A stretch of 64,000 nucleotides of DNA from Escherichia phage WPEC1, in the sequence record PV659873.1; one strand, written 5' to 3'. Position numbers and translations under genes: made by a program. Below are positions 6,593 through 7,073 of the stretch, in pieces; positions within the stretch are counted from its first letter, which is position 1; the number at the start of each line of letters is the position of its first letter. The notes under the pieces were generated by a model that saw only the letters and a list, made by a program, of their open reading frames with translations, was not told where the DNA came from and did not search any database.

Positions 6593-7021
6593 TCTAGCCT
6601 CCTAAACGCGTCTCTGACGCACTTTTTATATATAAGATGATAAATCACCTTACCTAGTAAGTGAACTTGCTCTACGAGCCTCTTATGAAGCTTATGTTAT
6701 AGGATATACTATTGCTACCTGTTTAAGCAAGGTTTTTGCACACAGAAAATAATTTTTAATAAAACTCTTGACTTTTGTGTTCGAAGTATGCTACCCTAGA
6801 AATCTATTAACGAGCGCAGCGAGTTAAGGTTTTAGGTTGTTGATGTAGTACTCTGTACTCAAGTACTGTACTCTGTACTAGATTAATAATTATTAAATAT
6901 TAATAATAAATAATTATTAGATCTAACAAACAGGTACAGTGTATCAGAACTGGTACGTACAGATCAACTTCTATCAATTAAAAATAAAATAATAAATTAT
7001 TATAAATAATACTTGATCTAT

Positions 7022-7050
7022 AGATCAGTATGAAGTACAGTACGGAACAT
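7022..7050 (+). promoter_or_regulatory. sigma70-like promoter (TTGATC-17-TACAGT)
   Basis: Hexamers read by eye upstream of first rightward gene at 7074. Confidence 0.3.
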
Positions 7051-7073
7051 CTCAACAAGAATGGAGGTGTGCA

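Follow-up and report, generated by a model that had tools for sequence, protein, structure and literature searches.

A candidate divergent early-promoter region with a recurring promoter–hairpin unit in Escherichia phage WPEC1

The divergent early regions of lytic coliphages, which are read by the host σ70 RNA polymerase, have back-to-back promoters at a strand switch, an A/T tract 5′ of a −35 hexamer and small genes of unknown function on both sides. The same layout is found in the 480-bp intergenic gap at positions 6593 to 7073 of a 64,000-nucleotide stretch of DNA from Escherichia phage WPEC1 (record PV659873.1; the whole stretch is called the window hereafter). Here, however, the distal rightward promoter has a fixed, non-consensus −10 hexamer (TACCCT) with a TGn extension and is followed, after its predicted start, by an invariant hairpin box, and this promoter–box module is present in three copies per genome, one of which is antisense to its neighbors and free of open reading frames (ORFs). 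Positions 5500 to 8500 of the window match Escherichia phages WPEC4, WPEC2 and WPEC6 with 100% identity and ∼60 Phapecoctavirus genomes (phAPEC8 group, subfamily Stephanstirmvirinae) with 98–99% identity.

Other described systems share single features with the module. R-loop origins of the T4 oriF/oriG type resemble the gap in that a promoter is followed within ∼100 bp by easily melted A+T-rich DNA, here the most easily melted of the genome, and they too occur in several copies per genome, some of which are also mRNA promoters and one of which has no coding function. They differ in that their promoters are MotA-dependent middle promoters without a conserved hairpin box, whereas the A/T tract of the present gap is not kept as a downstream element when other genera are compared. 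In ColE1, a PriA primosome assembly site (n′-pas, ssiA) is located in the region past the RNA/DNA switch (PMC3167613). The 13-nucleotide (nt) phage box, CGAGCGCAGCGAG, is identical in ColE1/pMB1, where it is also on the primer-transcript-sense strand, downstream of a promoter-driven RNA; in the plasmid, however, it lies ∼133 nt past the switch and ∼700 nt from the RNA II promoter, and in the phage ∼10 nt from the predicted start. The P1 hairpin of phage N4, GTTGC-GAA-GCAAC, includes the sequence GCGAAGC and is active as extruded single-stranded DNA (PMC13434306). The N4 hairpin promoters and d(GCGNAGC) mini-hairpins have in common with the box a GC-clamped G-N-A loop, a number of three copies per genome and a function that depends, or for the box would depend, on single-stranded extrusion, but the box is downstream of a σ70 promoter, on the non-template strand, and has tandem G-A pairs that are absent in N4. 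In the WPEC4 annotation, whose largest coding sequence (CDS) encodes ∼1,110 aa, there is no RNA polymerase and hence none of the N4 virion type (∼3,500 aa). Finally, the nut sites of λ and the put sites of HK022 are small hairpins with GNRA-like loops, located shortly 3′ of early promoters and present more than once per genome. Compared to these, the phage module has no conserved boxA and no recognized N-like protein, and its 3–4-nt loop (G..A) is closed by GC and flanked by tandem G-A pairs.

We read the gap as a divergent early-transcription control region of a phAPEC8-like myovirus, transcribed by the host σ70 RNA polymerase, and give this reading a probability of roughly 0.6. Judged from the sequence, a divergent early-promoter region with tandem rightward promoters is the best-supported interpretation, and an iteron or operator interpretation of the repeats in the gap is disfavored. 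An earlier note on this DNA had proposed that the gap holds divergent early promoters. Sequence and comparison support that proposal, pointing to one leftward promoter (P_L) and two tandem rightward promoters (P_R1 and P_R2) that are conserved from Phapecoctavirus to Justusliebigvirus and to relatives from Klebsiella and Citrobacter. The elements that carry this reading are as follows.

6665–6637, minus strand: P_L, a predicted σ70-like promoter, TTCACT-N17-TATCAT, found by promoter scan
6768–6797, plus strand: P_R1, the predicted distal rightward promoter, TTGACT-N18-TACCCT with an extended −10 (TGc), recognized from pattern statistics and conservation
6807–6827, plus strand: leader hairpin with an outer stem, TTAA/TTAA, around the box CGAGCGCAGCGAG at 6811–6823, recognized from covariation
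6976–7011, plus strand: second A/T-only run of the gap, 36 nt, in the position of an UP element directly 5′ of the P_R2 −35 hexamer
7013–7041, plus strand: P_R2, the predicted proximal rightward promoter, TTGATC-N17-TACAGT, recognized from the sequence, with its −10 inside GTACAGTAC

All three predicted promoters have the features expected for σ70, namely a spacer of 16–18 bp and a −10 hexamer whose second base is A and whose sixth is T. We compared the orthologous gap in eight close relatives (94–99% identical overall) and in phiWec179/186/190, phi92 (Justusliebigvirus), Klebsiella phi1_175008 and Citrobacter Tr1. This comparison with related phages, which the earlier note had recommended for the motifs of the gap, divides them: P_L, P_R1 and P_R2 are conserved across genera, their hexamers being kept at orthologous positions while the surrounding DNA diverges, whereas the GTAC repeats described below are not. 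P_R2 retains its −35, its −10 and the A/T-rich tract upstream at the orthologous position in each of the lineages compared (phi92, phiWec, Tr1 and the Klebsiella relative). The orthologous hexamer pairs are TTGACT..TAGAGT (phi92 and phiWec), TTGACC..TACACT (Klebsiella relative) and, in Tr1, TTGACC..TAGTAT or TATAGT; the −10 in KKP 3954 is TACAAT. P_L is embedded in a 21-mer, (G/T)AGGTAAGGTGATTTATCATC, found once in the WPEC4 genome and conserved in phiWec and phi92 as well as in the Vequintavirinae CR9 and PcCB7V, where it is found 5′ of an unrelated gene.

Further observations concern the P_L segment. The 21-mer GAGGTAAGGTGATTTATCATC (window 6637–6657, minus strand; about 1200–1225 in L130 and L131) stands 5′ of non-homologous genes in two subfamilies, and its conservation exceeds what a −10 region and spacer need. 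Between P_L and the leftward gene, the 5′ untranslated region (UTR) contains a small hairpin (6608–6620, minus strand, GCGUC-AGA-GACGC) directly 5′ of the Shine–Dalgarno sequence; its plus strand scores as terminator-like. In phi92 and Tr1, a hairpin of other sequence is found in the same place with the pairing kept (GGCTC/GAGCT and GCTC/GAGC, respectively).

P_R1 stands out by its statistics. The pattern TTGACW-N16–19-TACCCT occurs twice in the window, compared to an expectation of 0.09, and the extended −10 class TTGACW..TATGnTAnnnT occurs six times (0.07 expected), with nine occurrences in WPEC4. P_R1 is invariant in the eight close relatives save for two single changes and, together with its box, is conserved in phi92, phiWec, Tr1 and Klebsiella phi1_175008, in which the flanks diverge. 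The box follows the −10 hexamer by a fixed 12–16 nt in all copies of the module. It has a closing C-G pair followed by tandem GA/AG and by a GC/GC stem with a G-N-A loop, and 21 distinct instances conform to the rule C GA GC G(N1–2)A GC GA G, in which only the central bases vary (A, C, G, AT, AA or GG). The 13-mer is present in the window only in copy A, which is that of the gap, and in copy B, described below; WPEC4 has three.

The pairs within the box are invariant and thus uninformative for covariation, but the outer stem, with four pairs and three to six pair types at each, covaries, with a score of 0.415 compared to 0.136 ± 0.033 for shuffled alignments. None of 500 shuffles scored as high, and controls in which the stem was slid reached at most 0.166. 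Among the outer-stem wobbles, G-T pairs outnumber A-C pairs by 8 to 2, which argues that the hairpin structure belongs to the sense strand. A second small hairpin is found in the 12–16-nt spacer between TACCCTA and the box, where the stems vary (ACCC/GGGT, ACCT/AGGT, AAAC/GTTT and GTAT/ATAC). Stems of at least 4 bp were present in 6 of 14 spacers, compared to 0.58 expected, a count that 0 of 5,000 shuffles reached. Because this spacer hairpin straddles the predicted start site, it could not form in the P_R1 transcript.

The module is present in exactly three copies in the 155.8-kb WPEC4 genome, at 24.3 kb (copy C), 57.1 kb and 90.8 kb and thus ∼33 kb apart, and there are likewise three copies in each IMG/VR relative of ∼150 kb. 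Copy B is contained in the window.

63480–63650, minus strand: copy B, a ∼170-nt non-coding unit with TTGACT-N17-TGgTACCCT, the palindrome AAACATATGTTT, the box GAGCGATAGCGAG and two more hairpins

Its promoter-to-box arrangement occupies window positions 63643–63588 on the minus strand. Copy B was found in 132 of 132 Stephanstirmvirinae records. It is antisense to both of its neighbors, in a gap of 207–360 bp (ESCO13, WPEC4, the window and a phi92-like contig), and no conserved ORF was found in it; in comparison with a diverged IMG/VR relative, ∼150 nt are conserved, after which frame-shifting indels set in. Neither copy B nor copy C is followed by A/T runs comparable to those of the gap.

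The two A/T-only runs of the gap (6882–6919 and 6976–7011) are the two longest in the 155.8-kb WPEC4 genome and also constitute its two least stable 40-bp duplex windows. The 150 bp that begin at position 6876 form the least stable duplex of that genome, with −154 kcal/mol compared to −191.5 ± 7.1 kcal/mol, which is 5.2 standard deviations (SD) below the mean.

The box also occurs outside this phage group. Its 13-mer is identical in more than 3,600 ColE1-type plasmids; in pECO29, it lies ∼133 nt downstream of the RNA/DNA switch motif, on the RNA II-sense strand, which is the displaced strand. The similarity between the phage box and ColE1 stops at the 13-mer. The 13-mer presumably falls inside ssiA. 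According to Hirao and colleagues, d(GCGNAGC) reportedly forms a very stable DNA mini-hairpin, and we take the box core, GCG(N)AGC, to match that motif. In IMG/VR, the loose pattern TACCCTA..ACGAGCG gave mostly chance matches and a tighter pattern was used instead, with which singletons are, by our estimate, still near chance expectation; the exact 20-mer around the box was found in one IMG/VR contig only. In one contig (L156, 3300046167_000529), the box is present six times in 9.2 kb as GGGC-GAGCGAAGCGAG-CCC, followed by ATATAGT, and some of these boxes sit just 3′ of terminator-like hairpins. The L156 copies suggest that the box may be a reusable regulatory hairpin in unrelated phages. A marine podovirus group has tandem copies of the box. 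Small environmental podovirus-like contigs (L055 at 10600–10760; L014, L016, L099, L113 and others) contain two divergent copies of CTATTAGA..TCTATACCCTATCCCCCCC(A/T)ACGAGCG(N)AGCGAGTGGG in the gap 5′ of the large terminase gene, sometimes with tandem boxes. Therefore, the pairing of TACCCTA with the box is not confined to enterobacterial myoviruses.

In the divergent-promoter reading, P_L would drive the leftward block of small genes by way of the 5′ UTR with its hairpin beside the Shine–Dalgarno sequence, and P_R1 and P_R2 in tandem would drive the rightward small genes, the tRNAs, the primase/helicase and the DNA polymerase, with P_R2 placed behind an A/T tract in UP-element position. With a start ∼7 nt after TACCCT, the P_R1 transcript would carry the box hairpin a few bases from its 5′ end, and this hairpin may serve as a 5′-proximal structured leader that protects the RNA or binds a factor. 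The GTAC repeats, the first A/T run and a 128-nt palindrome would be local duplications and not conserved functional sites. The reading draws on sequence, statistics, conservation, copy number and covariation, from which we infer that the promoters are used, where they start, that they act early and what the hairpin does.

Several observations weigh against this reading. P_R2 scores only 8 of 12 against the consensus, which is why a simple promoter scan missed it. The instability of the A/T runs, more than 5 SD below the mean and the minimum of the genome, exceeds what an UP element needs. A plain mRNA promoter does not explain the spacer hairpin over the predicted start, nor does it explain copy B, with its antisense position and lack of an ORF. 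Nearest-neighbor folding gives the box hairpin no significant stability (z of −0.5 to +0.2); because the folding model has no terms for sheared G-A mini-hairpins, however, this result neither supports nor refutes the hairpin. In addition, the loops GATA and GTTA and the GNA triloops presumably fit the rules of DNA mini-hairpins better than those of RNA GNRA loops. A literature search found no start-site, timing or expression data for this phage group, and searches on the box sequence and on PAS-BH/PAS-BL returned nothing usable.

The repeats that are most conspicuous to the eye form a separate set of features in the gap.

6840–6967, no strand: 128-nt imperfect palindrome, with GTAC-rich arms that flank the first A/T-only run; lineage-specific
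6848–6879, plus strand: two copies of GTACTCTGTACT with GTACTGTAC between them and five GTAC sites; the most variable block among the eight close relatives
6882–6919, no strand: first A/T-only run, a near-palindrome; invariant in the eight relatives
7015–7026, no strand: perfect palindrome GATCTATAGATC with two GATC sites, overlapping the −35 hexamer (TTGATC, 7013–7018) and the spacer of P_R2

The tactctgtact repeats that the earlier note reported do exist, as two copies of the 12-mer at 6848–6859 and 6868–6879. The exact 12-mer has no other occurrence in the window, and sequences with up to two mismatches to it are not enriched there (8 matches compared to 5.0 expected). The real statistical signal of the gap is instead a cluster of GTAC that is not due to chance. 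GTAC is 3.6-fold under-represented in the window (63 sites compared to 224 expected), and 10 of the 63 sites lie inside the 197 bp from 6848 to 7043 (Poisson P of ∼3e-15). The CTGTAC sites are arranged with three on the plus strand on the left and three on the minus strand on the right and constitute the arms of the 128-nt imperfect palindrome. As single-stranded DNA, the palindrome folds with −20.3 kcal/mol (z = −5.05, with 0 of 200 shuffles as good), and the corresponding fold has a z of −1.8 in KKP 3954 and of ∼0 in Tr1, phiWec and phi92. We therefore rejected a long hairpin formed by the GTAC arms, as it is not maintained in KKP 3954 or in the other genera. Among the eight close relatives, the left GTAC arm is the most variable part of an otherwise nearly invariant gap. 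The second repeat copy reads GTACTCCGTACT in most of them, where a T-to-C change leaves the repeat imperfect; 14 nt of the repeat segment are deleted in dw-ec; and 6 of the 10 GTACs are changed to GTAT or ATAC in KKP 3954. The block is absent from phiWec, phi92, Tr1 and the Klebsiella relative, all of which keep the promoters and flanking genes. Thus, being variable within the clade and absent and unfolded in other genera, the features noticed first are the least constrained part of the region.

The origin of these repeats may lie in local duplication. A direct repeat, D1, relates 6885–6923 to 6988–7026 with 72% identity, and GTACAGTAC, which carries the P_R2 −10, recurs at 6934 and, inverted, at 6863–6871. 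Together with the inverted repeats, the variability of the GTAC block and the long hairpin that is not maintained, this makes the repeats, the first A/T run and the 128-nt palindrome look like products of local direct and inverted duplication, in the phAPEC8 lineage, of the unit formed by the A/T tract and P_R2. More specifically, the first A/T run and the adjoining segment 6920–6965 look like a decayed tandem copy of that unit. The A/T-only near-palindrome of the earlier note is present, with 18-nt arms that are 89% complementary, but spans 6882–6919 (38 nt) and not 6880–6930. Similarly, the perfect palindrome is real and overlaps a −35 hexamer as described, but is located seven bases further to the left than the 7022–7033 given for it. 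Perfect 12-bp palindromes are not above chance, numbering 24 in the window compared to 19.5 ± 4.8 in Markov-shuffled sequence. In three of the eight close relatives, GATCTATAGATT replaces GATCTATAGATC, and three of the eight have lost the second GATC; AGATCT is kept in the P_R2 spacer of phi92 and phiWec.

Two further candidates were set aside: a LexA-box interpretation of CTGT..ACAG, for which, by eye, the spacing and the second half-site do not fit, and a leftward promoter formed by the inverted TACAGT at 6870–6865, which has no −35 hexamer. Records of Danish phages have a 55-nt "repeat_region" annotated over window 6988–7042. The record NC_052659.1 (phage nieznany) begins and finishes inside this intergenic region, with a match at 28–441 and a second near the record end; this probably reflects where the assembly broke, at the A/T-rich repeats, and not a physical end of the genome.

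What the gap and its module do besides, or instead of, serving as promoters can be weighed from the same data. The P_R1 module could act as a 5′ leader hairpin or small RNA, or as a transcription-primed origin. We consider it very improbable that the GTAC repeats, symmetric about an A/T core, bind a phage protein such as an origin initiator or a repressor/activator, as iterons or operators would. The concentration of GTAC in a genome that otherwise avoids it (0.28 of expectation), the symmetric CTGTAC orientation and the overlap of one GTAC site with the P_R2 −10 hexamer would fit such binding, but the suggestion in the earlier note that the gap possibly holds regulator-binding sites is not supported for the repeats: no part of the gap is less conserved among genomes of 94–99% overall identity, and other genera lack the block while keeping promoters and flanking genes. 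The changes in KKP 3954 and dw-ec, which are viable, suggest that such variants grow and express the flanking genes normally. No DNA-binding gene was recognized adjoining the gap, where seven of seven neighboring proteins belong to PHROGs of unknown function, and, with spacings of 5, 7 and 8 nt, the GTAC sites are not in helical phase. Iteron-type origins would be expected to have at least three phased direct repeats of ∼17–22 bp, conserved in relatives and beside an A/T-rich region; the gap has only two 12-nt copies with irregular GTAC spacing, in the block that varies most within the clade and is absent in other genera. It is quite unlikely, albeit less so, that the box hairpin is an RNA site for a protein, as in nut/put-like antitermination or translational control, with copy B as a gene for a ∼120-nt small RNA. 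The fixed distance of the hairpin from the −10 in all copies, its sense-strand specificity with G-U pairs, and the discrete conserved unit of copy B, which ends at a hairpin, are in keeping with this, as are the further hairpins, some with U-rich tails, that precede the next ORF in copies B and C and in relatives. It is opposed by the small hairpin that straddles the start and so would not be in the RNA, the absence of an Rfam family match and the lack of a conserved boxA-like partner. GNA triloops and GAUA/GUUA loops are also, we assume, atypical of stable RNA hairpins. We rejected a boxA-like minus-strand sequence at the box, as it is present only in copies A and B and not in copy C or phi92.

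The earlier note had also raised a replication origin as a possibility, and what favors one here are features that it did not name: the promoter–hairpin module repeated three times per genome, the minimum of duplex stability and the minimum of the cumulative skew discussed below. A transcription-primed (R-loop) origin is a tentative alternative that we regard as unlikely on balance. In such an origin, the P_R1 RNA would stay hybridized, the displaced sense strand would fold into the small hairpin and the box hairpin and recruit a primosome or helicase loader, the downstream A/T runs would be the unwinding element and there would be one origin at each of the three module copies, much as in T4; synthesis of mRNA from the same promoters would not conflict with this. 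The first A/T run begins ∼80 nt past the predicted P_R1 start, at the least stable duplex of the genome, but in other genera the only strong A/T tract is directly 5′ of P_R2, in UP-element position and 120–150 nt past P_R1, and copies B and C lack comparable runs. The three copies per genome, ∼33 kb apart in WPEC4, and above all copy B, antisense, ORF-less, conserved over ∼150 nt and present in every record of the subfamily, are consistent with an origin, as is the spacer hairpin, which over the start site can form only in DNA; the G-T pairs of the outer stem, on the other hand, suit RNA at least equally. The match of the 13-mer to the displaced strand of ColE1-type plasmids, in a region where the n′-pas/ssiA primosome assembly site is exposed (PMC3167613), and the GCGAAGC of the N4 P1 promoter hairpin, which acts as extruded single-stranded DNA (PMC13434306), also favor this alternative. 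Against these stand the limitation of the ColE1 similarity to the 13-mer and the presence of the box in other contexts in unrelated phage contigs (six within 9 kb in L156), which points to a general-purpose stable hairpin. The cumulative guanine–cytosine (GC) skew of WPEC4 has its minimum at 90–91 kb, the locus of the gap, but since skew tracks gene strand genome-wide, it is not independent evidence for an origin and we dropped it as such. A more specific form of the idea is that the TGnTACCCT promoter, the start-site hairpin and the C-GA-GCG(N1–2)AGC-GA-G box make up an undescribed class of transcription-coupled single-strand initiation signal. It would mark three R-loop-type origins per Stephanstirmvirinae genome, one of them in the gap beside the weakest duplex, and its core hairpin would be common to the ColE1 primosome assembly site and recur in unrelated environmental phages. 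We hold this form to be doubtful, a shade more so than an R-loop origin as such.

These readings differ in their consequences. If the gap is a promoter region only, annotators of the ∼130 phAPEC8- and phi92-like therapeutic phage genomes would gain likely early promoters, and the eye-catching repeats would be evolutionary debris. If the promoter–hairpin unit functions as proposed, a widely used phage subfamily would have its first candidate for an origin or leader signal, the location of replication initiation would be directly testable at three named sites and a phage element would be tied to the hairpin core of the site that primes the lagging strand in ColE1. As the box recurs in unrelated phage contigs, it may be a component in general use in phage regulatory DNA or RNA, undescribed in current libraries.

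The genes and remaining features around the gap are as follows.

6269–6592, minus strand: leftward 107-aa gene, first in a long leftward block with genes for ligases and ribonucleotide reductases
6598–6603, minus strand: Shine–Dalgarno sequence AGGAGG of the leftward gene, from the sequence; annotated as a ribosome binding site in ESCO13
6690–6760, minus strand: remnant of the region upstream of a 70-aa leftward gene that is present in the gap of phiWec179/186/190 and absent from the window
7063–7067, plus strand: Shine–Dalgarno sequence GGAGG of the rightward gene, from the sequence; annotated as a ribosome binding site in ESCO13
7074–7259, plus strand: rightward 61-aa gene with its ATG at 7074, followed by small genes, a tRNA cluster, primase/helicase and DNA polymerase

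In phiWec190/186/179, the extra 70-aa leftward gene lies between P_L and P_R1, and the window keeps ∼70 bp of its upstream region. The earlier statement that the gap has no ORF needs a qualification. One ORF of at least 30 aa is present, a 42-aa minus-strand ORF at 6978–7106, but the gap appears non-coding because the indels among close relatives (1, 4, 7 and 14 nt) are not multiples of three; on this ground, we dropped a coding interpretation, including that of the 42-aa ORF annotated in WPEC4. This CDS (CDS241, 6978–7103) covers the second A/T run and shares sequence with the start of the rightward gene, there is no equivalent call in the other annotated relatives and 4-nt indels in its A-run would disrupt the frame. 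It is probably spurious. Rfam searches of 6000–8100 and 6755–6990 with permissive thresholds matched only the tRNA at the edge, the remainder being noise, such as miRNA precursor models, with E > 1 and scores far under the gathering thresholds.

The under-representation of GTAC is part of a wider pattern. Several 4-bp palindromes are avoided window-wide, with observed/expected ratios of 0.17 for CCGG, 0.28 for GTAC, 0.33 for GGCC, 0.37 for CTAG and 0.39 for CGCG, and others are not (GATC, 1.19; TGCA, 1.52). This is consistent with restriction-site avoidance, and four WPEC4 CDSs are annotated as DNA methyltransferases.

Beyond the gap, the window is colinear with WPEC4 only to ∼9550 and is mosaic over 9550–31000, with junctions at, for example, 9585, 10014, 10091, 13312, 23594, 26289, 26366 and 26874. 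The segment 13351–22700 maps to the terminase/portal side of WPEC4, and the tRNA cluster is split between 9411–9484 and 24544–25015. The junctions coincide with two families of identical dispersed cassettes of ∼77 nt. One family consists of TTGCCA-N17-TACAAT and a GAAGGAG ribosome binding site and has at least 10 copies in WPEC4 at 38.8–45 kb. The cassettes could be mobile promoter/ribosome-binding-site units or reflect a repeat-driven assembly artifact.

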